Shown: positions 3,539 to 49,013, numbered from the stretch's first letter. The stretch: 54,741 bases of DNA from a virus (IMGVR_UViG_3300022200_000058:1-54741), one strand, 5' to 3'. A program made the numbers and translations. The notes: generated by a model not told the origin, from the letters alone.

Positions 3539-4015
3539 TTACTTGTCTTTAAATGCTTCTGCTAATTTTCTTTGTGAACGGTGCTTATGTACTCTTACTG
3601 AACCGTGAGACATGTTAAGTTGTTGAGATATTTCTGTTGATTTAAATCCACACCAATATGAGAGAAACATTATTTTCTTTTGAGTTTCTGTTAATGGTTT
3701 AAAGTATTTTGCGAAATCTTGTGGTGTCTGTTCGAAATATGTGTCAGTGTGAGGTGGATGTTCTTGTTCGAACAGCTCATATGTTTGATACAAATTCTGG
3801 TTTCTAATATAGTCAATATGCTTGTAATAAGCTATTGTTAGCGTTAAAGAAAGAAATTGATCTCTGGTAAATTCCTTGTCTTTGATTTTATTCCAAGCTA
3901 GATAGATAGAGTAGTTATAAATGTAATCAGGTTCTTTACAGTTTTTCCTGTAAAGAAAAGACATTACTGGTTTCTTAAACTCTTTATAGTATTCTTCTAA
4001 AGTTTTCACGTTCAT
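3539..4015 (-). CDS. ECF-type sigma-70 family sigma factor
   Basis: Region 2-like LTIAYYKHIDYIR; region 4 LTETQKKIMFL...GFKSTEISQQLNMSHGSVRVHKHR. Confidence 0.8.
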   Translation of the reverse strand: MNVKTLEEYYKEFKKPVMSFLYRKNCKEPDYIYNYSIYLAWNKIKDKEFTRDQFLSLTLTIAYYKHIDYIRNQNLYQTYELFEQEHPPHTDTYFEQTPQDFAKYFKPLTETQKKIMFLSYWCGFKSTEISQQLNMSHGSVRVHKHRSQRKLAEAFKDK

Positions 4016-4288: not shown

Positions 4289-6787
4289 TTAGATTGAGCC
4301 TGTAATAGGACTGTCTTTGGAATGTGCCTTCTGAAACTCAAGCGGTGTTGTATACTTACATAGGTCTCCATTGGAGTCCAAATACCACCATTCCGTGTTT
4401 TTAAATGAACGAATGCTAAGTTCACCGTTAGATTCAACTTTACAGCTGACGGTGTTAGCTAGTCCATAAAACTGGAGTGCTCGTTCCAGATAAGGAAACA
4501 CTTTATTGTTCATCACTACTTGATCTGTGATGGTCCCGTTAGTAGTAGGCACTTTGATGGATGCTGAGTACAAGCCAAGCACGTAGTCGTGTTTGTCTTC
4601 TTCTCTGGGCATTCGTTCAATTGCTCGTACTACGAACGCATAGATGTCATCCCATTGCTTGGTGCTAATGGCTCCGTTGCTGATGTCAGAGTTGGCATCA
4701 TAAGATAGCCGCCGAAACTCTCGCAACGTGTTTTGTGTTGCGAAATACATTCGTGCACCTAGTTGGTGGATGATTTCTGGAGGACGACAGTTTTCCTGGG
4801 TCCATTCATACATGTCTTTACGATATTTCTTATACATATCGTAGAAAGATTTGTATGTTTTGGAAATGACTCCTTCATGCAGGATTGGTTCTTGACCTTT
4901 TTCAAGATACCATGGTGTGCCTCTGGTGGCCCAAAGAGCAGATTCAATGGGCTTGTTGGAGGCAATAACTTCTTGCATGATTTGCTTTGCTTCCATGTCG
5001 ATTGCTACAACATCAAGTTCGTGATCAGGGTTGATACACTTGTCGATGGCATCTTCTAGTGAACACAGTGGGTTCGGACGATGCTTTCCAATCGTGGAAG
5101 AGTGGATGATTGCTGAGTTGACATAGCCACCAACGTTGCCACCTTTCATGGCAATGCTGATGTCTCGTTCAACATCTTCTTGGGTATATGGACCTGTGCG
5201 GTAGGCTTTGGGTTCATGGGAGGATGGTAGGCCTTTGTAAGCAACTTCGTAATCGAATATTGCTTCTGAAAGGCGCTTTGGCCAACGAGAGTTGTTGACC
5301 TTGGGGAACCTGATTTCAGTACCATCTGCTTTGTGCCATGTAGGGTTCCATTCTCCTTCAACATAGTCGAAGATGGAATACTCTCCATGCCCGTTTGGTG
5401 AACGTGCTACGATGACTTTCTTACCAATATGATTTCCTGCGCCTTCCATCTCACGATAGAAGAGCTGAAAGAAATCGTCTTGGTCAGGGCCACCGTGGCT
5501 GTCATACATTTCAATGTAGTCAAGATCATTGACAACATGGCATTGAAGCTCATTGGATCGAACGATAGTGCCTGGTTCTACCATGAGTTCTTGCCCTGCC
5601 ATGCGAGCAAGTGATTCTGAAATGACCTGTTCATAAACGGCGCAAGGTACTGGAATCTTATTCTTCTTAAGGGGATCAGCATGTCGTGCACCAACGTTGT
5701 TGGCAAGCCATGGTGAATCCGTAATCTTGAAGCCAAGAGAAGTCCAACGATAACCGATGTAAGACATACGGGCTCGTTCTTCGTTCTCTTCAGGAGATTC
5801 CTTATCTTTCCATGTACGCTGGTAAATGGAACGCCAGTTAGTAAGAAGTGTTCCTGACTTAACGTCATCAAACAGTTTCTTGTATTCCTCTTTGAGCCAC
5901 ATTTCCATATCACTCTTACGGAAGAGTTTAGGAAGATTGACCATAGTTTGCTCATTGCTGAGAGTCTTGGTCTTTGCTGGTTGCGGTTCAGCAAGGAAAC
6001 GGAAACCGTTGTAATAGAACATTTCTTTCTTGATATTACCTGATTCACAGATAACATCAATGCCTTCTGGAAGGTCATCTACAGCAAAGGCGTTACCTTT
6101 GAGATGTCCTTGTTCAAAGATTAAACGTACGTTCCAAGCCTTGTTGCGTAGAAGATAGTTTACAAGGTTACGTCGACCACGAGGGTCAAAGTAATATTCT
6201 TGTGAATCTTCATTGTTCTGAGGTTCATATACGGGAAGGTGAGCTACTGCTTTCTGAATCAGACGAGTGCTGATTACGAAACCACCGTCAAGCAGTCGGT
6301 CTTTGTGGTCTCGATAATATTGGTGAAGATTTTCATCTTCAAAGTCGTAACGAGTGAATCGTGTTGGGTCGACTTCTAGTACATTAATCTCATCTCGGTC
6401 AAATCGACAGTTGATGAGAGTGGGTCGATGAGCAGACTTGAGTCGTTTATTAGTCTTGTCACCTGATTCTAGGTGATATCCCAAAGTATTGAGAGCGGAC
6501 ATCCATCCGGGACTGTTGCTAAACACAACAAAGACAATCTTATTCTTGTCTACTAAAGCATATTGTACTTCTGGCTTATGAAGAAACTGCTTAGCGATTT
6601 TGAACTCTTTAGTTGATTGTGGAATCGGCAGAGTATACATGGTGTAATCGCCACCATATTCTTCAAGAACCTCACGTACAATGCCCGAATCGTAAAACCC
6701 CATCTGGTAGTTTTCCCGGCTGCGTAGAGGACCGTTGGAGTCGATCTTCATACGACATACGGGTTTGTAGATTCGATTTTTTGACAC
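4289..6787 (-). CDS. Putative single-subunit two-barrel (YonO/RdRP-like) DNA-dependent RNA polymerase
   Basis: Motifs LDGGFVIS, NVR..(x6)LKG, HGGPDQDDFF (variant of GxDxDGD) and VIVARSPN; 832 aa. Confidence 0.65.
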   Translation of the reverse strand: MSKNRIYKPVCRMKIDSNGPLRSRENYQMGFYDSGIVREVLEEYGGDYTMYTLPIPQSTKEFKIAKQFLHKPEVQYALVDKNKIVFVVFSNSPGWMSALNTLGYHLESGDKTNKRLKSAHRPTLINCRFDRDEINVLEVDPTRFTRYDFEDENLHQYYRDHKDRLLDGGFVISTRLIQKAVAHLPVYEPQNNEDSQEYYFDPRGRRNLVNYLLRNKAWNVRLIFEQGHLKGNAFAVDDLPEGIDVICESGNIKKEMFYYNGFRFLAEPQPAKTKTLSNEQTMVNLPKLFRKSDMEMWLKEEYKKLFDDVKSGTLLTNWRSIYQRTWKDKESPEENEERARMSYIGYRWTSLGFKITDSPWLANNVGARHADPLKKNKIPVPCAVYEQVISESLARMAGQELMVEPGTIVRSNELQCHVVNDLDYIEMYDSHGGPDQDDFFQLFYREMEGAGNHIGKKVIVARSPNGHGEYSIFDYVEGEWNPTWHKADGTEIRFPKVNNSRWPKRLSEAIFDYEVAYKGLPSSHEPKAYRTGPYTQEDVERDISIAMKGGNVGGYVNSAIIHSSTIGKHRPNPLCSLEDAIDKCINPDHELDVVAIDMEAKQIMQEVIASNKPIESALWATRGTPWYLEKGQEPILHEGVISKTYKSFYDMYKKYRKDMYEWTQENCRPPEIIHQLGARMYFATQNTLREFRRLSYDANSDISNGAISTKQWDDIYAFVVRAIERMPREEDKHDYVLGLYSASIKVPTTNGTITDQVVMNNKVFPYLERALQFYGLANTVSCKVESNGELSIRSFKNTEWWYLDSNGDLCKYTTPLEFQKAHSKDSPITGSI

Positions 6788-10018: not shown

Positions 10019-10048
10019 TATATCTCCTTAGTGTTTGATGATATTTAG

Positions 10049-10121
10049 CTCCGGGAACAGGGCTCGAACCTGTGACCCGCTGATTAACAGTCAGCTGCTC
10101 TGCCAGCTGAGCTATCCCGGA
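10049..10121 (-). tRNA. tRNA-Asn (GTT), CCA not encoded
   Basis: Cloverleaf: acceptor TCCGGGA/TCCCGGA, anticodon loop CT-GTT-AA, T-loop TTCGAGC. Confidence 0.95.
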
Positions 10122-10316
10122 ATATAGTCTGATACATATAGTGTTTCATGAACACCAAAGACACCGAGTGCTGTTGCAGGATCTCCCTCCACACCATGCT
10201 ACATGTATCAGACTAAAGGTTATTGGGGCACACCACAGTGTCGTTTAAGACGCGTTATACACGCAGTCCCCCAATTGTAAGGAATATATTATCCCATTAA
10301 ATCATTGTTTTGCATG

Positions 10317-10390
10317 CGCCCCCGGCAGGAATCGAACCTGCGACCTGCGGCTTAGAAGGCCGTTGCTCTATCCTACTGAGCTACAGGGGC
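10317..10390 (-). tRNA. tRNA-Arg (TCT), CCA not encoded
   Basis: Cloverleaf: acceptor GCCCCTG/CGGGGGC, anticodon loop CT-TCT-AA, T-loop TTCGATT. Confidence 0.95.
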
Positions 10391-14636: not shown

Positions 14637-15170
14637 TCAGAAAGGGTTTTTGTGCCTGGAATCGTAGCCAGGGACACTTGAACCGCTGTCAGGCGAATGC
14701 GTGAAACAGTACGGTTCATCATGATAGGCAACCATGCGGTCACAGCCGGCATGCTCACACTCATGACGACACTCAGTATCACACATGTGATAAGAGTTTT
14801 TAACTGGAGCAGGATTATAACTTCCATCATTATTGAACGTGCCCATAGTAGGAACCTCCATGTCATGTGCCTTTAGATTGGCCGGCGAAGTAGTCTTCAT
14901 AAACTGAAGAACATCCATGAGAAAACTCAGGTTCTCATCACTACGATCCTGATACTTGACCAACTCGCTCATAACAAGCGAATAGACAGTCTGCTGAACA
15001 GGCTTCAACTCCTGGAACATGTCGTCAATCTTGTCAACAATGTTCTTAGCCTCAACCAAGCCACAGTGCGTATTGCTACGAATGTCCTTGATGAACTGAA
15101 TCTTGTTAACAACATTGAACTTATGTGTAACAACATCTTTGGACAATGGAATGTTGATGGTGGTCAACAT
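14637..15170 (-). CDS. Ribosomal protein L7/L12 C-terminal-domain-like protein with Cys/His-rich extension
   Basis: NKIQFIKDIRSNTHCGLVEAKNIVD matches bL12 CTD signature KI..IK..R....GL.EAK..V; RBS GAGG. Confidence 0.65.
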   Translation of the reverse strand: MLTTINIPLSKDVVTHKFNVVNKIQFIKDIRSNTHCGLVEAKNIVDKIDDMFQELKPVQQTVYSLVMSELVKYQDRSDENLSFLMDVLQFMKTTSPANLKAHDMEVPTMGTFNNDGSYNPAPVKNSYHMCDTECRHECEHAGCDRMVAYHDEPYCFTHSPDSGSSVPGYDSRHKNPF

Positions 15171-15217
15171 GTGTACCTCTTTCTTTATTTTGAATGTGGA
15201 TAAAACGGGTCTGATAG

Positions 15218-15296
15218 TGGAGGAGCCGGGAATCGAACCCGGGTAGCACAGCGTTCCGACATGCGGGTTTACGTGTGCGCTAAGCCCTTCTCCCCC
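15218..15296 (-). ncRNA. tmRNA tRNA-like-domain (TLD)-only RNA with alanine identity
   Basis: Acceptor GGGGGAG/CUCCUCC with G3-U70, discriminator A, T arm CCGGG-UUCGAUU-CCCGG, no D stem, helix GCACA-CGU/ACG-UGUGC closed by a short hairpin. Confidence 0.75.
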
Positions 15297-15496: not shown

Positions 15497-16534
15497 TCAG
15501 TTACGATCAAACTCCACATCAGCATCATCAGTGCTAGCAGTGGGCTGTGCATCATCAAGACGAGTGGTACCACGACGAGTAGTCCACAAATCAATGAACA
15601 CAGGATCGTTATCGACAACCATCTCAATACGGCCACAAGTAGCCTTAATGAGATCATACTGGTCGACAGTCTCCAACGTGCCATTCACACGATTCTGACG
15701 CTGAGCCGAACCAGCCCAGTTGCCAGAAGCCTGACGAGCAAGCTCCTTCTTACGAGCAATCATGCTCTGAAGAGCCTCAAGCTTCTTACCAGTCAAGTCG
15801 GAAAGCTTACCTTCCTGATCAGTAATCCAATTGATTTGCTCCTGCTGACGCTCATAGGTTGAAACCACAGCATCAACAAAGGAAGTGAACCCCTGATTAC
15901 GAGTATTCTTAGACCGATCAGTCTTAGAAACCTCAAACCAGTTCACAGGAACACCAGTGGAATGACGATACGCTTCAGTCATCGTCCGAGGCTTATTGGC
16001 ACGCGAAGCAAAGTCATCGACAGCACCAGCACCCAAGAACGTCTCAACAAAGGCATCAAACTTATCTCGATCAGCACCAATCTGCTGAGTGAACAAGTTC
16101 GGAACCTTAGTAGAGATACCCGAAGCACCAGTGAAGTCCATCCTCATATTGAAGAGCATTTCATCAAAGGTATCGCGGGAAAGATCAGGATCATTCTCCT
16201 GAGCCTGCATGAAGAACAAATCCTGGATCGAAATCCAATCATTCTCCACCTGAACCTCAAGATTCATAGCAACCTGGCTCAACAGCATCTCAGCAACGAG
16301 ATACGTAGAGTTCGGATCCTCAACATAGGCCTGCTCACGGAGAGTAACCTGAGTCAGAAGAGGCTGATCCAGAAGGGTAACACGAGTATTCACATCGTGA
16401 CCATTGATCGAACCAGCCTGAGGCACAGTACGACCAACCTTCACTTGAATAGTGTTGCCCGAAGCAGCCGTCAGATCCAAATGGCGATCTGACACCTTAT
16501 GAACATCACTCTTGAAAAAGGACAATACGCTCAT
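15497..16534 (-). CDS. Hypothetical protein with acidic C-terminal tail
   Basis: 345-aa ORF with strong codon bias; ends ASTDDADVEFDRN. Confidence 0.8.
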   Translation of the reverse strand: MSVLSFFKSDVHKVSDRHLDLTAASGNTIQVKVGRTVPQAGSINGHDVNTRVTLLDQPLLTQVTLREQAYVEDPNSTYLVAEMLLSQVAMNLEVQVENDWISIQDLFFMQAQENDPDLSRDTFDEMLFNMRMDFTGASGISTKVPNLFTQQIGADRDKFDAFVETFLGAGAVDDFASRANKPRTMTEAYRHSTGVPVNWFEVSKTDRSKNTRNQGFTSFVDAVVSTYERQQEQINWITDQEGKLSDLTGKKLEALQSMIARKKELARQASGNWAGSAQRQNRVNGTLETVDQYDLIKATCGRIEMVVDNDPVFIDLWTTRRGTTRLDDAQPTASTDDADVEFDRN

Positions 16535-16635
16535 AACTTACAATTCAACTTTCTGTTGTCTAACTTACTTATATTATGTTATTGACATTGGTGCAAACTA
16601 TTACAGTTTACACCAATGTCAAGCTTTTGCATGTG

Positions 16636-16860
16636 TCAGGCCTGAGCCTCAATGACATCGTCGGTCAAATCAAACACGACAACATCATCGACATCAGACT
16701 CACCCATGCCTTCCTGCCAGCCTTCCTTCACCTTATCAGCGAAAGCAGACGAACCCGACTTCACTTTAGCAGTGAATGAGCTAGCAAGACTTTTCGTGTG
16801 CTTAGGAGCATCAGAGATACCCTTAGTCACAATAGCAGCAGATTTTCCAATAATCTTCAT
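16636..16860 (-). CDS. Hypothetical protein
   Basis: RBS AAAGG; acidic C-terminus. Confidence 0.7.
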   Translation of the reverse strand: MKIIGKSAAIVTKGISDAPKHTKSLASSFTAKVKSGSSAFADKVKEGWQEGMGESDVDDVVVFDLTDDVIEAQA

Positions 16861-16870
16861 TTTTTGAATG

Positions 16871-16960
16871 TTACCTTTCTACATTTTCGCCGGAAAGAAC
16901 TCCGACAGCAAATGCCAGTAAAATATTGATAGTGACACTAATAATGAACAACACAAACAT
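16871..16960 (-). CDS. 29-aa single-TM peptide
   Basis: Manual ORF MFVLFIISVTINILLAFAVGVLSGENVER; RBS AAGGGGAG; follows the cassette motif at 16985. Confidence 0.6.
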   Translation of the reverse strand: MFVLFIISVTINILLAFAVGVLSGENVER

Positions 16961-17029
16961 GTGTTTTCTCCCCTTTTGAATGCGCGTCGTCAAGTTTAGA
17001 CTCTGCGACTAAAGGTCCTACAATGCGAA

Positions 17030-17083
17030 CAAGGTGAGCGCGGGTGCAACCAGACTAATCTGGCTACACCCGCGCTTAACCTT
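17030..17083 (-). terminator. Long hairpin, probable terminator
   Basis: AGCGCGGGTG...CACCCGCGCT inverted repeat directly after the stop at 17082. Confidence 0.55.
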
Positions 17084-17222
17084 AGCTCATCTGGGTGAGA
17101 ACCTGCTCCCAGTGAACTATCGCTCGCACGATGTTATACGACTCCATCGAGGACAAGTTGGAGTTCTCCAGCTTATACCTCAACTCGGTCAAAGTCTGCT
17201 CAATGGTCTCTTGTCGCGTCAT
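17082..17222 (-). CDS. 46-aa hypothetical protein
   Basis: Manual ORF MTRQETIEQTLTELRYKLENS...QMS. Confidence 0.6.
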   Translation of the reverse strand: MTRQETIEQTLTELRYKLENSNLSSMESYNIVRAIVHWEQVLTQMS

Positions 17223-17227
17223 GGTGC

Positions 17228-17671
17228 TCACTCGAACTCCATGCCTTCGATCAGGCCATTGGCTTCAGCAGCCGAAGCGGCTCCTCGGGCAACCTTCTCA
17301 GTCCGGTTGTCCCAGACCTGCTTGACAAAACCAGCCAAGACGGCACCCATGTTGTCGCGGGTCAAATCGAGGCTCCGATAAGGGCGAGAATCGCTCTTAC
17401 GGAACTTCTGCTCAATCACCGCAGAATCGATGTCAACCCAGGTCTGATGGCTCTTATTGACACCATCGGGCTTCAGCAGGCCAAAGACCCACTCTCGCAG
17501 AATCTGGTCCTGCATGGTGACCTTGCCGTTCTTGGCGCGAACGGGCAGCTTCAGGCTCTCTGCGGGCACCTCGAAGAACAGAGGCTGACCCTGGAGATCC
17601 TGGGGATTGTGGGGCGTGAGGCTGATCTTGGATTCACCAGCTCCAACCCAGAAACGGATAAGATTTGCCAT
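17228..17671 (-). CDS. Cassette protein, distant paralog of 18198..18557 and 19440..19796
   Basis: Shared IR.WVGAGE..IS..P; start MANL at 17671 after GGAAGGAG. Confidence 0.8.
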   Translation of the reverse strand: MANLIRFWVGAGESKISLTPHNPQDLQGQPLFFEVPAESLKLPVRAKNGKVTMQDQILREWVFGLLKPDGVNKSHQTWVDIDSAVIEQKFRKSDSRPYRSLDLTRDNMGAVLAGFVKQVWDNRTEKVARGAASAAEANGLIEGMEFE

Positions 17672-17870
17672 GTTCAAGCTCCTTCCAAGCTGAATCGGAT
17701 AATATGGCACCGCCGAAGGCGGCGTTCTCAAGTTTAGACTCTAAGGACCTAAAGACTATATTCACTATCAAAAAATGCTAGTGATATATAATATTAATAC
17801 AGCCTGGGCGGCAATGAAGTGAATAAAAGTCTATGAACAAAAGATGAAGAAGCCCCCGAAGGGGCATTCC

Positions 17871-18074
17871 TCACCAGTTCGCCTCCACGAACTCTTCGGT
17901 CTCCTGAGAAACCTTCTCCTTGAAGAATGGATCCAACTTGGTGGACCTGATCTTCTCGGAGATGTCTGGCCTGACCTGAACCAGACAGTTGAAGTACCAC
18001 TGACCATATCTTTGGTCGGTGACTTCTGGACGATGGCTTTGCTTTGTTGATGCCACGAACTGCCAGTATTCCAT
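17871..18074 (-). CDS. Cassette hypothetical protein (67 aa)
   Basis: RBS AAAGGAG; followed by a cUUCGg hairpin at about 17852-17866. Confidence 0.8.
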   Translation of the reverse strand: MEYWQFVASTKQSHRPEVTDQRYGQWYFNCLVQVRPDISEKIRSTKLDPFFKEKVSQETEEFVEANW

Positions 18075-18146
18075 GGGATCTCCTTTCTACTTGTCCCGTT
18101 CTCAAATTTCTGGGACTAAATAATAATATTATAACTAAAGATCTAG

Positions 18147-18182
18147 CCCCCCGAAGGGGGGGGGAGGCCCGAAGGCCTCCCC
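18147..18182 (-). terminator. Tandem cUUCGg hairpins (putative terminator)
   Basis: GGAGGCC-UUCG-GGCCUCC and CCCCC-UUCG-GGGGG; identical copy at 19389-19424, variant at 18661-18696. Confidence 0.65.
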
Positions 18183-18197
18183 TGTCACCCCTGTGGC

Positions 18198-18557
18198 TCA
18201 GCTCCAGTTGAACTCAGCCACGATGGCGTCAGCCGCGGTGGTGTCCACGGCTGCACTCTTCTCGCGACGGGCCTGCTGGCACAGCGCGAGGAACTCCTTG
18301 AGGATGTTCTCATCCCTGAGCTCAAGACGATACGCGGGGGTACCGTCGCTCAGCGTGAACACCTCGAAGAGGCTCACGGGGACCTCCGGGGTCATGACGT
18401 GAGTCTTCACGCCATCGGTCCAGAGACCGGCCCGGAGCTTCGCACGCGTCGCATCGGACGCATTCACGAAGACCGGGGTGTTGCCGGACACGGGCTTGAA
18501 GGACACACCCTCCTCACCCGCACCGACCCATCCGCGGATGGTCGGAGTTTTGCTCAT
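18198..18557 (-). CDS. Cassette protein, paralog copy A (119 aa)
   Basis: RBS AAAGGAG; highly similar to 19440..19796. Confidence 0.9.
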   Translation of the reverse strand: MSKTPTIRGWVGAGEEGVSFKPVSGNTPVFVNASDATRAKLRAGLWTDGVKTHVMTPEVPVSLFEVFTLSDGTPAYRLELRDENILKEFLALCQQARREKSAAVDTTAADAIVAEFNWS

Positions 18558-18708
18558 GTGGTTCTCCTTTCACGAGCATGGGCCAAGTACCTCCTGGCTC
18601 CGTTCTAAAGTTTCTGGGACTACATAATCACTATCAAAGTTCTAGTGATTAAAGATCTAGCCCCTCGAAGAGGGGAGGAAGCCCGAAGGCCTCCTCTCTC
18701 CTCTCCCC

Positions 18709-19068
18709 TCAACTCGCGAGTTGGGCCACAGCACCCTCGATTGTGCTGCGATCCACCCAGTCGGTTTGCTTGCCGCTCAGGACGATGCAGGCCCATTCGG
18801 TAACCGGCTTCGCCATGACAGTCTGGGACCGAACCCAGCGCTTGCCACTGTGACGGTTGATGCCGCCAACATTGGCCACGATCCGGAACGAATCGTTCTT
18901 ACCGAGGTAAACCACGGCAGAGCGGACGATGGGCCCGATGGTGAACTCATCGAACTGCTCACCCTGGACTCGCCAGAAGGTGTTGCCCTTCCGGTCGATA
19001 CGGCGCTCGAACTTGCCAGCGGTGATGCACCGGATGACGTAGTCAAGCAGGATTGCGGTAGTGCGCAT
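18709..19068 (-). CDS. Cassette hypothetical protein (119 aa)
   Basis: RBS AAGGAGG; GC3-rich codons. Confidence 0.8.
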   Translation of the reverse strand: MRTTAILLDYVIRCITAGKFERRIDRKGNTFWRVQGEQFDEFTIGPIVRSAVVYLGKNDSFRIVANVGGINRHSGKRWVRSQTVMAKPVTEWACIVLSGKQTDWVDRSTIEGAVAQLAS

Positions 19069-19156
19069 CTGGCACCTCCTTGCAGAATCGGCTGTTCATC
19101 TGCGTTCTCAAGTTTCTGGGGATAAAGACCTAACAACTAAAGATCTATAACGAAAA

Positions 19157-19191
19157 AGTGGGAGAGGCCCCCGAAGGGGCCTCTCTCACTT
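19157..19191 (-). terminator. Intrinsic terminator
   Basis: GAGAGGCCCC-UUCG-GGGGCCUCUC stem followed by a U-tract on the minus strand. Confidence 0.75.
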
Positions 19192-19305
19192 CTTCTTCTC
19201 GATCTTCTTCCTTGCTTCCTCCTTCTCCTCCTCAGTCCAGCGAGAACTAAAGATTGTGGTCCATGGAGCCTTGCGATTCGGATTGTCAAGTGCATTCTTC
19301 GGCAT
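19186..19305 (-). CDS. 39-aa charged peptide
   Basis: Manual ORF MPKNALDNPNRKAPWTTIFSSRWTEEEKEEARKKIEKKK; RBS AAAGGAGGTG. Confidence 0.75.
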   Translation of the reverse strand: MPKNALDNPNRKAPWTTIFSSRWTEEEKEEARKKIEKKK

Positions 19306-19439
19306 AATTACACCTCCTTTCTCTCGTTCACACGCTTCTGGGACTAATACTACTATCACTATCAAAATTCTTACAATTAAAGATCTAGCCCCCCGAAGGG
19401 GGGGGGAGGCCCGAAGGCCTCCCCTGTCACCCCTGTGGC

Positions 19440-19796
19440 TCAGCTCCAGTTGAACTCAGCCACGATGGCGTCAGCCGCCGTGGTGTCGACACCGTCGCTC
19501 TTCTCGCGACGTGCCTTCTGGCACAGAGCGAGGAACTCGGTCAGAACCTGCTCGTTCGTCAGGTTCAGACGATACGCGGGGGTACCGTCCTTGAGCGTGA
19601 ACACCTCGAAGAGGCTCACGGGGACCTCCGGGTCCATGACGTGGGTCTTCACGCCATTGGTCCAGAGACCGGCTCGGATCTTCGTGCGAACGTCGTCAGA
19701 CGCTCGCACGAAGACCGGGGTGTTGCCGGACACAGGCTTGAAGGACACGCCCTTCTCACCGGCTCCGACCCATCCGCGGATGGTGGGACTGCTCAT
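19440..19796 (-). CDS. Cassette protein, paralog copy B (118 aa)
   Basis: RBS AAAGGAG; duplicate of 18198..18557. Confidence 0.9.
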   Translation of the reverse strand: MSSPTIRGWVGAGEKGVSFKPVSGNTPVFVRASDDVRTKIRAGLWTNGVKTHVMDPEVPVSLFEVFTLKDGTPAYRLNLTNEQVLTEFLALCQKARREKSDGVDTTAADAIVAEFNWS

Positions 19797-19922
19797 GTGG
19801 TTCTCCTTTCATGAGCATGGACCAGGTACCTCCTGGCTCCGTTCTAAAGTTTCTGGGGCTAAAAATCACTATCAAATATATAACTAAAGATCTAGCAGGG
19901 CAGAAGGGGAAGACCCCGGGCG

Positions 19923-20042
19923 TCAGCCCGAGGTCTTCTTCTTGCCCTTCATGTGGCACGCCTTGACGGCTGCCACAGTCTTATGCCTCACCTCCTTCCG
20001 CTTTCCGTTCTCCCACTTCGAGCACTTACCACAGACGATCAT
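19923..20042 (-). CDS. 39-aa basic Zn-binding-like peptide
   Basis: MIVCGKC...H...C; RBS AAAGGAGG before ATG at 20042. Confidence 0.75.
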   Translation of the reverse strand: MIVCGKCSKWENGKRKEVRHKTVAAVKACHMKGKKKTSG

Positions 20043-20116
20043 GTCGCCTCCTTTCCTCGTTCCCAAGCTTCTGGGGCTAAAGATCACTATCAAAATGCTA
20101 GCTCGACAAAGAGGGA

Positions 20117-20311
20117 TCACCCCTGACATCCGCAGATGTCAAGGGCAACCGTCCTCTTCACACACAATGGACACTCGGCCTGGAACCCAGCCGCACCATC
20201 CATCGTGTGACAGCCCATCTCATGCGCACGAATCCATCCGATCCGACGACACGCGAAGTACTGCTCACTGCCAACGACATGACGTCGTCGACACACGCTG
20301 CATGTGATCAT
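20117..20311 (-). CDS. Cys-rich small protein
   Basis: CSVC, CPLC; ATGA coupling; RBS GGAGG. Confidence 0.7.
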   Translation of the reverse strand: MITCSVCRRRHVVGSEQYFACRRIGWIRAHEMGCHTMDGAAGFQAECPLCVKRTVALDICGCQG

Positions 20312-20475
20312 GCTTCAAACCACCTCCTTCCGAGGATGCCACCCATCGCGACCATGCAGGCCACGAGGATACCGTGTTCGGGATGCGTGAACCCCTCCCA
20401 CTGCCAACCCATCCAGCTCTGCGCTGCAAACAGCCCAAAGAAGATGGCAACGATGAAGACTCGGACAATGTACAT
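20308..20475 (-). CDS. Small two-TM membrane protein
   Basis: Start MYIV at 20475 after GGAGG. Confidence 0.7.
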   Translation of the reverse strand: MYIVRVFIVAIFFGLFAAQSWMGWQWEGFTHPEHGILVACMVAMGGILGRRWFEA

Positions 20476-20616
20476 CTGATCCTCCCTGCACAGGAATCGT
20501 TCGGTCATCCCGTGCGTTCACACGCTTCTGGGGCTATGGATACTATCACTATCAAGAATCTAGCCGGCCAAAACAGGAGGGTCCCGACCCCCCCGAAGGG
20601 GGGCCAGGACGACCTG

Positions 20617-20859
20617 TCAGACGAGCCAGTTCTTGAACTCGGGCTCAGCTGGACGCGTGTACAATGGGAGGGTGAGACCCCATGCACGTGCGTACGACTC
20701 CGCGGTGCGGACCGTGTTGGCCTCCATCTGTCCGGTGATGTCCACCGTACGGACGTTGGTACCCTCCAAGATGCACCACTGTCCACCGTTCGTGTGAACG
20801 ATGCGTCCCTCGCGAGCAGCGGGAACGATGAACTCATTGATGAGAGTGTGAACATTCAT
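20617..20859 (-). CDS. Cassette hypothetical protein (80 aa)
   Basis: RBS AGGAGG; followed by a cUUCGg hairpin at 20588-20603. Confidence 0.8.
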   Translation of the reverse strand: MNVHTLINEFIVPAAREGRIVHTNGGQWCILEGTNVRTVDITGQMEANTVRTAESYARAWGLTLPLYTRPAEPEFKNWLV

Positions 20860-21183
20860 GACTATTATCCTCCTGCAGAGATCAGTTGTTCACTCTGCGT
20901 TCTCAAGCTTCTGGGGTATACCCCCGTACCCTCGTTAAAGAAACAAGAGTACATATATATCTACTATTACCCGCTCATAAATTTTCCTTTATTTTTCCAT
21001 GATATAGTTTTTTATATACCTTTATAGGGGCTGTGGGGGTGGTCGGGCCGCCGGAAAAACTTTTCTGAGAAATATTGATCTACTACTTGACAAGGATCTA
21101 ATACATATGCTTAGATGACAGTTAACCACCACAAGGTGGGGGAAATATCAAGCACCCAATGCTTAACACTCAAGGGAGTTGTA

Positions 21184-21384
21184 ATGAATACATTTGTTGA
21201 TTGTCCACACTGTGGTTCAGAGTTCATCGTATCTGAGGATCTTCTGGTGTCTACTGTGAGATGTCCTGATTGTCTCATGTGGGTAGATGAGGACACTGAG
21301 GGTGTACGTACCACGTTGGCTGGCTATGCTAGCCGTTTGGGTTCAGATTACATGGATGAGCTTGAATACGGTTACGATTACTGA
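21184..21384 (+). CDS. Zn-ribbon protein
   Basis: CPHC...CPDC; RBS AGGGAG; TTGACA upstream at about 21087. Confidence 0.75.
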   Translation: MNTFVDCPHCGSEFIVSEDLLVSTVRCPDCLMWVDEDTEGVRTTLAGYASRLGSDYMDELEYGYDY

Positions 21385-21396
21385 TATACTGACGCA

Positions 21397-21488
21397 TGTA
21401 ACTTTAACCCTCCAATAAAGTTACTTTATGTAGTCATGTGAAGAAAAAGGGGATGTTCCACTAGCCATGGTGGAGCGTCCCCTTTTTT
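21397..21488 (+). ncRNA. Candidate ~90-nt small RNA
   Basis: TTGAAT-17-TATACT promoter (21362-21390), 9-bp hairpin with CCCUCC loop, terminator. Confidence 0.5.
21444..21488 (+). terminator. Intrinsic terminator
   Basis: 15-bp stem with three G-U pairs on the plus strand, followed by U6. Confidence 0.8.
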
Positions 21489-21564
21489 GATGTGTCATAT
21501 TTCTCTTTTGATGGTCACAACCTAATCACTACTATACCTGTGTCTTTTTTTATTATAAGGAGTG

Positions 21565-21720
21565 ATGATGAATAGCTTTTGGAAGAGATTTGTTGCAAAC
21601 AGACGTAGAAAAGCAGAATACGCTAGATACAGTTATCTGATCAATAAGGATCAGGGTTTAACCGATGATTTGGAGCGCAGAATTTCTCGTTTGATGTTTG
21701 ATCAACTTCGCTTGTTCTGA
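21565..21720 (+). CDS. 51-aa hypothetical protein
   Basis: Manual ORF MMNSFWKRFVANRRRK...; RBS AAGGAG. Confidence 0.65.
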   Translation: MMNSFWKRFVANRRRKAEYARYSYLINKDQGLTDDLERRISRLMFDQLRLF

Positions 21721-22023
21721 TTAGAACTGGCGTGGATCAATAATAACTGTTGAGCTTTCGCCTTCTTCAGCGAGCTCGAAAATAACTTCATCAATTGATT
21801 TTTCAGATATTTCACAGATGTTGTTTACAATTGTCCATTCATCTTCATTGAATACACTGAAAACGATGTAGCCTTCTGGGGTTGGATGAACCGTAATGAT
21901 TCTTTCCATTTGATCGTTAGAAAATTCGTGTGTAAACCTGAGCACGTCATTAGGATCAACTTTGTCTAAGTTTTTTTCTACTAAATCAAGAATTCTTTTG
22001 ACAAAATCGTAATCCATGTACAC
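21721..22023 (-). CDS. Hypothetical acidic protein
   Basis: RBS AAAGGA; TTACTA motif upstream. Confidence 0.75.
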   Translation of the reverse strand: MYMDYDFVKRILDLVEKNLDKVDPNDVLRFTHEFSNDQMERIITVHPTPEGYIVFSVFNEDEWTIVNNICEISEKSIDEVIFELAEEGESSTVIIDPRQF

Positions 22024-48239: not shown

Positions 48240-49013
48240 GTGGCTTTTTCAAATCTAGTTAATAATTTTGTTGTCGGAATTAACAGCCTTCAAATAAAGT
48301 TTATTCGTTCAGTTCAGATTACTTCTTTATTAGATGAAAACTTTGTATTGACAAAAACATCTGATCCATCTTCTCCTATAAGTTCACCATTTAGAGATAT
48401 TAATACTCTTGTTCACTATAATTCTATAAGCAGGGTTTTAACTTTGTTCTGGAATGTAGTTTTAGATGGAAATACAGAGTATACAGTTACCATAAGTAAT
48501 CTTAAAGATGGCGGTGGTTTAACGATACCATCAGATAGTTTTAGCTTCACCACTCCAGAATCATCTGCAACTCCTAGTAGTTTAGTTTCTACAGGAACTG
48601 TTATAGAGGAAGTTTTAATTCAGGATAAGTCAGTTAAAGTAGACTTTGAAACTGGATATCAAATAATAGCAAAAAATCCAGAATTTTACATTAAAGAAGT
48701 TAGCCCTACTAATGGAGCTTTTTATATTAATAATGGCGAAAATGATGGAAGAGTTGTATTAACCTTTAATCAAAGACCAGCAAGCAACTTCTTAACTTCA
48801 AAGTATTTTAAAGCCCAAAGAAAAAAAATGCAAAGGGCACCTTCTAGGTGGGAAAATGTTTCTACTCAGATATCTATGCACTCATGGAAGCCAGATGTTT
48901 TTGTAGATTTTCCATCAGATGATAGTACTCCGGTTTATTATGAAGATGGTAAGACTTATTTTGAAACAGGGTATAAATACAGGATTATTGTTTCTTCAGA
49001 GGTGGGAGTATAA
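48240..49013 (+). CDS. Ig-like domain virion protein
   Basis: LDGNTEYTVTISNLKD...FSFTT (Big_5-like). Confidence 0.65.
   Translation: MAFSNLVNNFVVGINSLQIKFIRSVQITSLLDENFVLTKTSDPSSPISSPFRDINTLVHYNSISRVLTLFWNVVLDGNTEYTVTISNLKDGGGLTIPSDSFSFTTPESSATPSSLVSTGTVIEEVLIQDKSVKVDFETGYQIIAKNPEFYIKEVSPTNGAFYINNGENDGRVVLTFNQRPASNFLTSKYFKAQRKKMQRAPSRWENVSTQISMHSWKPDVFVDFPSDDSTPVYYEDGKTYFETGYKYRIIVSSEVGV

Follow-up and report, generated by a model that had tools for sequence, protein, structure and literature searches.

Organization of the cassette array

The stretch studied here, IMGVR_UViG_3300022200_000058 (hereafter the window, meaning all of its 54,741 b), is a complete IMG/VR virus record, and its minus strand carries, from position 20919 down to 16636, an array of ten small gene cassettes, eight of which are headed by an exact copy of one promoter-like motif, here called the core. 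An initial annotation of the same DNA had proposed ten self-contained cassettes, and this is confirmed, as a ribosome-binding site (RBS), one or two small open reading frames (ORFs) and a downstream hairpin were found in 10/10. The RBS is of the AGGAGG type in all ten cassettes, the ORFs encode 29-147 aa, and their in-frame GC content at third codon positions (GC3) is 0.37-0.82. Read along the minus strand, on which all array features given below lie, each unit opens with a single or double hairpin, after which CTAGATCTTTA and TTGATAGTGA are often present, and continues with the core, a leader of 16-52 nt, the RBS, and 1-2 ORFs.

Cassette 1 consists of a single gene for an 80-aa protein without a Pfam family (20617..20859), and it ends in terminator hairpin 1 (20581..20610), in which a cUUCGg loop is followed by CCTCCTGTTTT. 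Cassette 2 (20117..20475) holds the genes of a 55-aa hydrophobic peptide (20308-20475) and a 64-aa Cys-rich protein (20117-20311), and cassette 3 that of a 39-aa protein with a CxxC motif (19923..20042), whose leader is only 16 nt long. The gene of cassette 4 (19440..19796) belongs to a 118-aa protein family with paralogues in cassettes 7 and 9, and is followed by a double terminator hairpin (19390..19424) and then CTAGATCTTTA. Cassette 5 encodes 39 aa (19186..19305); cassette 6 encodes 119 aa (18709..19068), with one homologue, 94% identical, at E <= 0.001 (four candidates in a library of 5.8 billion proteins); and cassette 7 encodes a protein of 119 aa (18198..18557) that shares 82% identity with that of cassette 4. 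The 67-aa gene of cassette 8 (17871..18074) is conserved in two related loci, L010 and L012. Cassette 9 (17082..17671) comprises a 147-aa gene (9a), a distant paralogue of the 118-aa family at 31% identity, and a 49-aa gene, and cassette 10 (16636..16960) comprises genes of 29 aa and 74 aa.

The cassette ORFs differ from the rest of the phage in codon usage: GC3 is 0.60-0.82 in cassettes 1-9 versus 0.23-0.51 in other phage genes, while that of cassette 10 is phage-like and not high. A host-like codon set for early translation and an influx of genes from GC-rich sources are two possibilities for these values. The long plus-strand ORFs of the array stretch are the antisense artefact usual for coding DNA of high GC content. 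In Pfam, the ten cassette proteins examined had no match at E <= 0.1, and PHROGs gave three weak rows only (E 0.003-0.076). For the 118-aa family (cassettes 4 and 7, distantly 9a), 16 homologues were found, all unnamed metagenome proteins, and its structural model (predicted local distance difference test, pLDDT, 80.6) had no fold match in the PDB at E <= 1e-3. The terms pre-early and host takeover, which the initial annotation applied to these genes, are ones that we too would infer solely from gene size, ORFan status and position.

Hairpins stand at the ends of 10/10 cassettes, with zone minimum free energies (MFEs) of -9.4 to -41.2 kcal/mol, and loops of the cUUCGg type close them in 6/10, in line with the earlier statement that most are of this type. 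A hairpin with a T-run was called after cassettes 1, 2, 5 and 8 only, and the other hairpins are followed by CTAGATCTTTA.

Core motif and upstream boxes

Searching the window for CCCAGAARYKTKDGAACG gave 9 matches at <=3 mismatches, where 0.87 would be expected by chance and 0/100 shuffles reached 9. Eight copies are exact, all on the minus strand within 18097-20915, and their plus-strand starts agree with the annotated positions in 8/8 cases: core 1 (ATACCCCAGAAGCTTGAGAACG; 20898..20919), which opens the array with no hairpin and no boxes directly upstream, core 2 (20515..20536), core 3 (20058..20079), core 4 (19840..19861), core 5 (19325..19346), core 6 (19103..19124), core 7 (18601..18622) and core 8 (18097..18118). 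The ninth match, with 3 mismatches, is at 5166, within the polymerase gene described below. A looser core pattern run over the whole window returned 8 reverse and 0 forward matches, with controls at 0/0. Variant cores precede cassette 9 (TTAGAGTCTAAACTTGAGAACG; 17723..17744), where L010 has it too, and cassette 10 (GCAGAGTCTAAACTTGACGACG; 16985..17006); as the alignment confirms, they have the 3' half of the core in common, which is AAACTTGAGAACG-like. The consensus of the 22-nt core is TAG(C/T)CCCAGAA(A/G)C(T/G)T(G/T)NGAACG. No core was found before other genes of the window, the polymerase gene and other minus-strand genes included, so that the motif is found in the array only.

Two boxes accompany the core. 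Within the array, the TTGATAGTGA box has 6 exact minus-strand copies (17762..20555; at 20546, 20084, 19866, 19356, 18628 and 17762), lying 4, 4, 5, 9, 9 or 17 nt upstream of a core and accompanied at some sites by an inverted partner, TCACTA. The TAGATCTTTA box has 5 exact minus-strand copies (18136..19894; at 19885, 19378, 19138, 18650 and 18136) and one more with 1 mismatch; the exact copies stand directly after hairpins and are like the array motifs of related phages. TTGATAGTGA is absent from cassettes 1, 6, 8 and 10, and cassette 1 is without any clear box; the box counts thus agree with the annotation that not every cassette has both. Neither CTAG nor GATC is enriched in the array, and a search of 16000-22000 against Rfam found no family at threshold (7 chance-level rows, all E >= 0.34).

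Gain, loss and duplication of cassettes

Contigs from two other samples join parts of the array that are separate in the window. In DNA run X15, 18145 is joined to 20570, so that 2424 b (cassettes 2-7) are skipped and 14 other letters lie between (depth 38.7, side 45); in DNA run X9, 19132 is joined to 20571, with 1438 b (cassettes 2-5) skipped and 15 similar letters between (depth 2.2, side 30). Cassette 1 is thereby linked directly to cassette 8 (X15) or cassette 6 (X9). The left breakpoint of both deletion variants (20570/20571) falls beside terminator hairpin 1, and both right-hand breakpoints lie in TAG boxes: 18145 in the TAGATCTTTA box of core 8, and 19132 in the TAG box just upstream of core 6. 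In addition, loose contig ends of X9 at 20570, 20617 and 20619 show that other sequence adjoins the cassette 1 terminator.

Similarly, the units of cassettes 4 and 7 share 87% DNA identity over 535 nt from box to box (18661-18129 versus 19896-19371), flanks included, and are whole-unit duplicates. Among relatives, the order in L012 is family gene, core copy without a gene, family gene, cassette 8 and cassette 9 promoter, and that in L010 is another gene, family gene, cassette 8 and cassette 9. At L012:340-440, a core copy (CCCAGAAACTGGAGAACG) and a leader remnant with no ORF lie between two family paralogues, and this segment looks like an emptied cassette. The initial annotation had suggested that the repeats let cassettes be duplicated or swapped, and had proposed comparing their content and order among relatives. 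The comparison shows that content varies, with breakpoints in repeated intergenic modules and one whole-unit duplication; cassette content is therefore not invariant among relatives. We are highly confident that this is a cassette array in recombinational flux.

The same observations could be read without any transcriptional role for the repeats, which would then be the recombination sites of an integron-like cassette-mobilising system, or else parts of a recent high-GC island. The ends of cassette gain and loss do fall within the repeats, and the GC3 of the cassettes would suit foreign DNA. Set against this, no integrase or recombinase was detected among the 40 window proteins scanned with Pfam and/or PHROGs, which are a subset of its ORFs; the repeats lack the form of attC-like imperfect palindromes, and they are placed like promoters relative to the RBS and terminators. 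Furthermore, the AT-rich intergenic modules are related to modules of low-GC relatives; the scaffold is therefore native to the clade, which counts against a foreign island. We regard this explanation as very improbable.

The 832-aa protein and its neighbour

The initial annotation had pointed to an 832-aa protein as an RNA polymerase (RNAP). Its gene (4289..6787) is on the minus strand, as is the array, from which it lies 10.2 kb downstream. By sequence, alone or as a profile, the protein has no Pfam, PHROG or PDB match, and 237 relatives were found in a library of 1.84 billion proteins. An AlphaFold model (AF2), built with 50 relatives chosen from 150 listed of the 237, reached a pLDDT of 91.5 and a predicted template modelling score of 0.91. 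Foldseek returned 22 PDB matches at E <= 1e-3, which are QDE-1, plant RDR2 and the phage proteins P32 gp64 and P74 gp62. The match to QDE-1 has an E of 6e-10, a probability of 1.00 and a template modelling score of 0.41-0.45; those to the Thermus-phage polymerases have an E of 3.7e-6 (P32 gp64) and 3.9e-5 (P74 gp62); and weaker matches are crAss phi14:2 gp66 (3.2e-3) and P23-45 gp96 (2.2e-2). Based on these matches, the 832-aa protein is therefore, by its predicted fold, a single-subunit two-barrel RNA polymerase of the QDE-1/phage gp64 type (RNAP-1), and the earlier assignment is upheld. Its acidic motif is GGxDxDD, in which D435, D437 and D438 are invariant in 50 sequences.

A profile search for a second polymerase in the window returned the 832-aa ORF only. 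A 1244-aa window protein was considered as a second polymerase and rejected as unrelated (hhalign probability 0.14), and a BLASTP comparison of seven large window proteins with the RNAP-like large proteins of relatives gave no match. Adjoining the polymerase gene downstream is the gene of a 158-aa protein (3539..4015, minus strand) with a Sigma70_r4_2 match (E 8.9e-9) and a match to the GerE-type helix-turn-helix (HTH); only region 4 of sigma-70 was detected in it.

Arrays and polymerases in related phages

IMG/VR contains 63 loci with a polymerase of the 832-aa type, at 20-56% identity, many of them on contigs of 170-268 kb. In relatives that encode it, an array of 6-20 cassettes occupies the corresponding position, on the strand of the polymerase gene and 6.5-16 kb upstream. 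The motifs of these arrays are lineage-specific, non-sigma-70 and confined to one locus, with no TANNNT at a fixed place. For example, of the 15 copies of ATATCTTTAAAT in the 268 kb of G014, 14 lie on one strand within 199,021-203,741, which is 6.5 kb upstream from the gene of the polymerase; in G007, TTGAGGATAGACC occurs in 7 copies. Another motif, TTTATGRSTAG, forms a single same-strand cluster of 6-20 copies in 13 records (G004, G005, G006, G008, G010, G012, G015, G016, G020, G022, G024, G025 and G026), with few or none elsewhere and 0-2 in controls. In the six records that were read, the copies stand in the order GC hairpin with T-run, motif, TAG-rich short palindrome, leader, RBS and small ORF. 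The CTAGATCTTTA and TTGATAGTGA boxes of the window are like these motifs, and the 22-nt core would therefore seem to have been added downstream of the boxes in this lineage. A scan of IMG/VR with the 22-nt pattern gave 0 matches, a search of IMG/VR with the 118-aa protein gave none that was confirmed, and the 118-aa family is absent from 26/26 related records.

A second polymerase paralogue, RNAP-2, was found in 15 records as open frames of 804-1132 aa (E 1e-45 to 1e-85), for example at G016:56606-58843, G025:35780-37834, G026:113079-115112 and G006:149181-151316. RNAP-2 borders the array at its 3' end, its gene starting no more than a few hundred bases from the final array motif where both could be located. 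The window and 11 other records have no RNAP-2, and the TTTATGRSTAG array is present in 13/15 records with RNAP-2 versus 0/12 without it (the window among the 12). This is a correlation and not a test, as it is drawn from related genomes, many of which are incomplete. A third, weak two-barrel match lies in some relatives inside open frames of 1247-2073 aa (G021:126844-127761, G019:78521-79309, G024:69456-70064 and G014:130304-131158), and these large proteins are possible virion polymerases. Nothing like a large polymerase of the virion type is encoded in the window.

Some further features of the relatives may be recorded here. Their arrays are sometimes raised in GC (0.51 versus 0.43 in G007, and 0.47 versus 0.41 in G025). 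Just downstream of the polymerase gene, several of them have a 37-bp tandem array, GATTAGTAACA-N8-GAATGAATCA-N8, with about 28 copies in L017 (L017:11540-12600; also L018, L019, L023, L025, L030-L032, and G002:12219-12850) and none seen in the window; its size is not CRISPR-like, and iterons or a protein-binding array are possible. A repeat at G002:59191-62109 was considered as a cassette array and rejected, being a GC-rich collagen-like (Gly-X-Y) coding repeat.

Probable promoter function and start site

A sigma-70 consensus scan of 16000-22000 found 2 minus-strand sites only, none upstream of any core, and the aligned core copies have no TANNNT at a fixed place, which bears out the annotated lack of a good -10. 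It is nevertheless conceivable that the core is read by host RNA polymerase, redirected by the 158-aa region-4 protein (3539-4015) or by a host alternative sigma. The location of this Sigma70_r4_2/GerE HTH protein just downstream of the polymerase gene would fit, several of the hairpins have a T-run that would suit a bacterial polymerase, and the AAC-containing blocks of the core (AGAAAC, GAACG) are reminiscent of -35 elements of the extracytoplasmic function (ECF) type. However, there is no partner element at -10/-35 spacing, the invariant blocks of the core beginning only 13 nt apart, and the 16-nt leader of cassette 3 has no space for a -10 downstream of the core; moreover, the 158-aa protein shows region 4 only, and the relatives' array motifs likewise are without TANNNT at a fixed place. 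We consider a reading by host polymerase unlikely. The core taken on the plus strand as a sigma-70 -35 (TTCACA/TTCTCA) was also rejected, as its partner -10 would lie in the variably spaced upstream region and because the antisense RNA would run into terminators.

The leaders give an indication of where transcription begins. With a leader of only 16 nt in cassette 3, a start downstream of the core is not feasible, which leaves the core itself or the sequence before it. When the leaders were folded from the last G of the core to the start codon, 9/13 MFE stem-loops began exactly at that G (cassettes 1, 2, 4, 6, 7 and 9, and three L010/L012 copies), and their stems differ yet compensate (GCAGAG/CTCTGC, GCACGGGA/TCCTGTGC, GCAGG/CCTGC and GCCGCC/GGCGGT). 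Such a fixed zero distance from the motif end to the stem-loop is expected if the 5' end of the transcript is at that G. Transcription would thus probably start at or beside the last G of GAACG. In addition, L010 and L012 have conserved the core, and their 118-aa family proteins are 78% and 68% identical, respectively, to those of the window; among 16 core copies there are 14 distinct 27-mers, and CCCAGAA and GAACG are invariant in the 12 distinct copies of the main type. In our view, the core is likely to be a promoter.

As a separate observation, five leaders (20860-20897, 20476-20514, 19069-19102, L010:147-170 and L012:500-525) have a similar loop of 12-13 nt in their 5' stem-loop, which is TGAAC...GAT in 4/5 of them, and their stems, which differ but compensate, abut the RBS.

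The boxes offer another assignment of the promoter. The TAG-rich boxes upstream (CTAGATCTTTA / TTGATAGTGA) could themselves be the promoter, and the core a transcribed element of the 5' leader that acts in processing, stability or translational control. Between terminator and RBS, the relatives show no motifs other than TAG-rich ones (ATATCTTTAAAT-TATAGTG, TTTATGRSTAG-N3-4-TAGRYC and TTGAGGATAGACC), the boxes of the window are like them, so that the core would be a lineage-specific insert between boxes and leader, and the box-to-core spacing varies from 4 to 17 nt. However, cassettes 1, 6, 8 and 10 are without TTGATAGTGA and cassette 1 has no clear box; the core has no conserved internal pairing, while the leader hairpins begin exactly at its last base; and Rfam is below threshold throughout 16000-22000. 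A promoter located in the boxes therefore appears rather improbable to us, and the core remains the preferred promoter.

With regard to the enzyme that would read the core, the chances that it is a phage-encoded polymerase seem about even. That it is the 832-aa enzyme in particular seems doubtful, because the motif has no copies beyond the array, which does not include the gene of the enzyme. A dedicated polymerase, which may be carried in the virion, would account for this restriction to the array, seen also for the motifs of relatives, no less well than the 832-aa enzyme.

Interpretation of the array

Based on the results presented above, the best reading, to which we give a probability of roughly 0.55, is that of a recombining accessory-gene array with a promoter core for phage machinery. 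The array would be the block in which this jumbo phage, uncultured and from freshwater, has its accessory genes, a hyperplastic region made of ten autonomous units, each with a terminator hairpin, TAG-rich boxes, the 22-nt core, a leader, a strong RBS and 1-2 small genes without a family match. The core would most likely be a promoter for non-sigma-70, phage-encoded transcription machinery, with the start probably at or beside the last G of GAACG, and candidate readers would be two-barrel single-subunit polymerases, namely the 832-aa enzyme or a virion-borne one encoded outside the window. The intergenic repeats would provide homology for recombination, through which strains living together duplicate, lose and exchange cassettes, as happens with the stem-loop cassettes of T4-like phages (see below).

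A number of observations weigh against this reading. The core occurs nowhere else in the window, and the 832-aa enzyme, if it is the reader, must therefore use other promoters that are not recognised; as the polymerase is encoded outside the array, the first transcripts could not be its product unless it is packaged. The metal-binding signature of the 832-aa family is DxDD, not the canonical DxDxD triad given for two-barrel polymerases in two reports (PMC10770324, PMC7824862). In 26 searchable related records, the exact core gave 45 matches versus 40 for the control at <=2 mismatches and 0 exact matches, and in G002, the closest near-complete relative, exact 9-mers show no array. The association of RNAP-2 with its motif is, as stated, correlative. 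The deletion joints come from contigs at a min_likeness of 85, may stem from repeats or other organisms, and in one case have low depth.

The RNA-library data belong among these points, being assembled contigs that cannot show starts and may hold DNA. Libraries X17 and X18 contain contigs identical to the window over parts of cassettes 4, 6 and 9, which do not prove transcription, and contigs from RNA libraries cross variant core 10; the lack of such contigs over other parts of the array carries no information. In two RNA runs from different studies, contigs stop at 19826/19827, 13 nt past core 4; this stop coincides with the end of a 32-nt block common to cassettes 4 and 7 and is thus possibly an assembly break, and as an RNA 5' end it is a weak hint. 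One further RNA-library contig ends at 17701, just beyond the cassette 9 leader hairpin, in what is presumably an Illumina adapter; either the 5' end of an RNA or a stop of the reverse transcriptase may account for this end.

A wider scheme for the clade is tentative and, in our view, only a possibility. In these freshwater phages of about 200 kb, there may be a cascade of up to three single-chain two-barrel polymerases, namely RNAP-1, RNAP-2 and one contained in a large protein that is probably part of the virion, and one of the three would have as its private regulon a single hypervariable ORFan array of 6-20 cassettes, with a promoter co-evolving with the enzyme set. The lineage of the window would then have lost RNAP-2, and a novel promoter of 22 nt, in which the +1 G is fixed and which is followed by leaders with a 5' stem-loop, would have evolved in it.

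The source phage and other features of the window

CheckV estimates the completeness of the record at 26%, and the genome should therefore be that of an uncultured jumbo phage of about 200 kb. The runs containing the stretch are mostly labelled as freshwater metagenomes. The genes of the window include those of a T4-type large terminase (TerL), a bacterial-type RecA, a ClpB-like ATPase, a helicase, a portal protein and a cytosine methyltransferase, as well as two tRNAs; given the T4-type terminase domain of TerL, the phage could conceivably be a T4-like myovirus. The GC content is 35-45% overall and up to 52-58% in 17000-21000. Compared with cultured phages, the array DNA had no match, with short methyltransferase matches only elsewhere in the window, and the polymerase had no match by tblastn. 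The closest bacterial relatives of RecA are mostly from metagenome-assembled genomes (MAGs) of Acidimicrobiia/Actinomycetota, at 54-58% identity, which is a weak hint at such a host; in a MAG with a RecA 69% identical, the exact core gave 35 matches versus 38 in the control, that is, no signal.

Other features were observed in passing. ARAGORN called the tRNAs as Asn (10048-10121) and Arg (10316-10390), and a tRNA-like T-arm, GGTTCGATTCCCGG, lies in the intergenic region at about 15150-15230 (minus strand) without an ARAGORN call. A 177-aa protein (14637-15170, minus strand) matches the ribosomal L7/L12 C-terminal domain with a Pfam E of 7e-6, slightly above the cut-off. At 48972-49012 (plus strand), TATAAATACAG stands 30 nt ahead of a gene beginning at 49013, and is similar to T4-type late promoters; most of the other TATAAATA copies in the window are inside genes. 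Divergent from cassette 1 is the gene of a 66-aa CxxC...CxxC protein (21184-21384, plus strand), after which a hairpin (21441-21490) with T-runs on either side resembles a two-way terminator.

Comparison with known systems

The array has close precedents among phages. Promoter early stem-loop (PeSL) elements are composite terminator/promoter repeats upstream of small ORFan genes in plastic regions of T4-like phages, and serve as recombination points at which indels and replacements between close relatives end (Arbiol et al. 2010, PMC2839356; Comeau et al. 2014, PMC4122927). Both systems have a stem-loop joined to a promoter-like motif, small ORFans and indel ends in the repeats. On the other hand, PeSL promoters match the sigma-70 consensus, are read by host polymerase and are scattered over several regions, whereas the array here is without a sigma-70 consensus and forms one locus; moreover, this phage encodes its own two-barrel polymerase, and its T4-like status, unlike that of PeSL carriers, is not shown. 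The array is PeSL-like in evolution but fails the defining sigma-70 promoter of PeSLs.

With regard to transcription, the Thermus phage P23-45 is instructive. It has virion and non-virion two-barrel polymerases with a conserved promoter motif each. The motifs of the virion enzyme are clustered at an end of the genome, a cluster of pre-early/early genes is preceded by strongly conserved non-sigma-70 motifs, and a conserved motif is also found at terminators (PMC10770324). The likeness includes a single-subunit two-barrel polymerase, since the 832-aa model matches, by Foldseek, the P32 and P74 homologues of the P23-45 enzyme. Starts were mapped and the enzymes located by chromatin immunoprecipitation in P23-45 (PMC10770324), whereas the array here is known from sequence and is likened to P23-45 by its layout; in addition, no virion polymerase is encoded in this window, unlike the set of P23-45. 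By analogy, the array most resembles in transcription the clustered promoters of the P23-45 two-barrel polymerases.

Morons of lambdoid phages are likewise autonomous promoter-gene-terminator units added to a phage genome; they occur in temperate phages, where each is inserted singly and has a promoter of the host type, unlike the tandem array with a shared special motif described here. Features of integrons are lacking, as no integrase was found among the 40 proteins scanned (not exhaustive) and the repeats do not resemble attC sites. Among characterised enzyme types whose promoter was left open, YonO comes nearest, a single-chain two-barrel RNA polymerase of about 100 kDa from the Bacillus prophage SPbeta; it serves one late operon with one start there, whereas here a many-copy motif stands before small accessory genes (PMC5467207). 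YonO-like enzymes are mentioned for two phages only in a 2021 survey of cultured jumbo phages (PMC7824862). Literature searches on PeSLs, P23-45 gp64 and YonO/two-barrel promoters gave no mention of this clade or motif, which is not proof of their being unpublished.

Taken together, the self-contained cassettes, the non-sigma-70 motif, the polymerase fold and the variable content claimed in the initial annotation all stand, but its term undescribed system is too strong in view of the PeSL cassettes and the clustered phage-RNAP promoters of P23-45; the feature is real, and a variant of kinds already known. Promoters are known for very few single-subunit two-barrel phage polymerases; those of P23-45 were mapped only recently (PMC10770324) and that of YonO was left open in 2017 (PMC5467207). 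The uncultured clade, with its 63 IMG/VR loci, 6-20 promoter copies per genome, lineage-specific motifs and 1-3 polymerase paralogues, is a natural series, and offers ready material for studying how enzymes of this class recognise promoters and for designing orthogonal expression parts. In addition, the array marks the site of the fast-turnover genes of these phages, which may include anti-defence or takeover functions, and it extends modular shuffling of the PeSL kind beyond T4-like phages and sigma-70 promoters.

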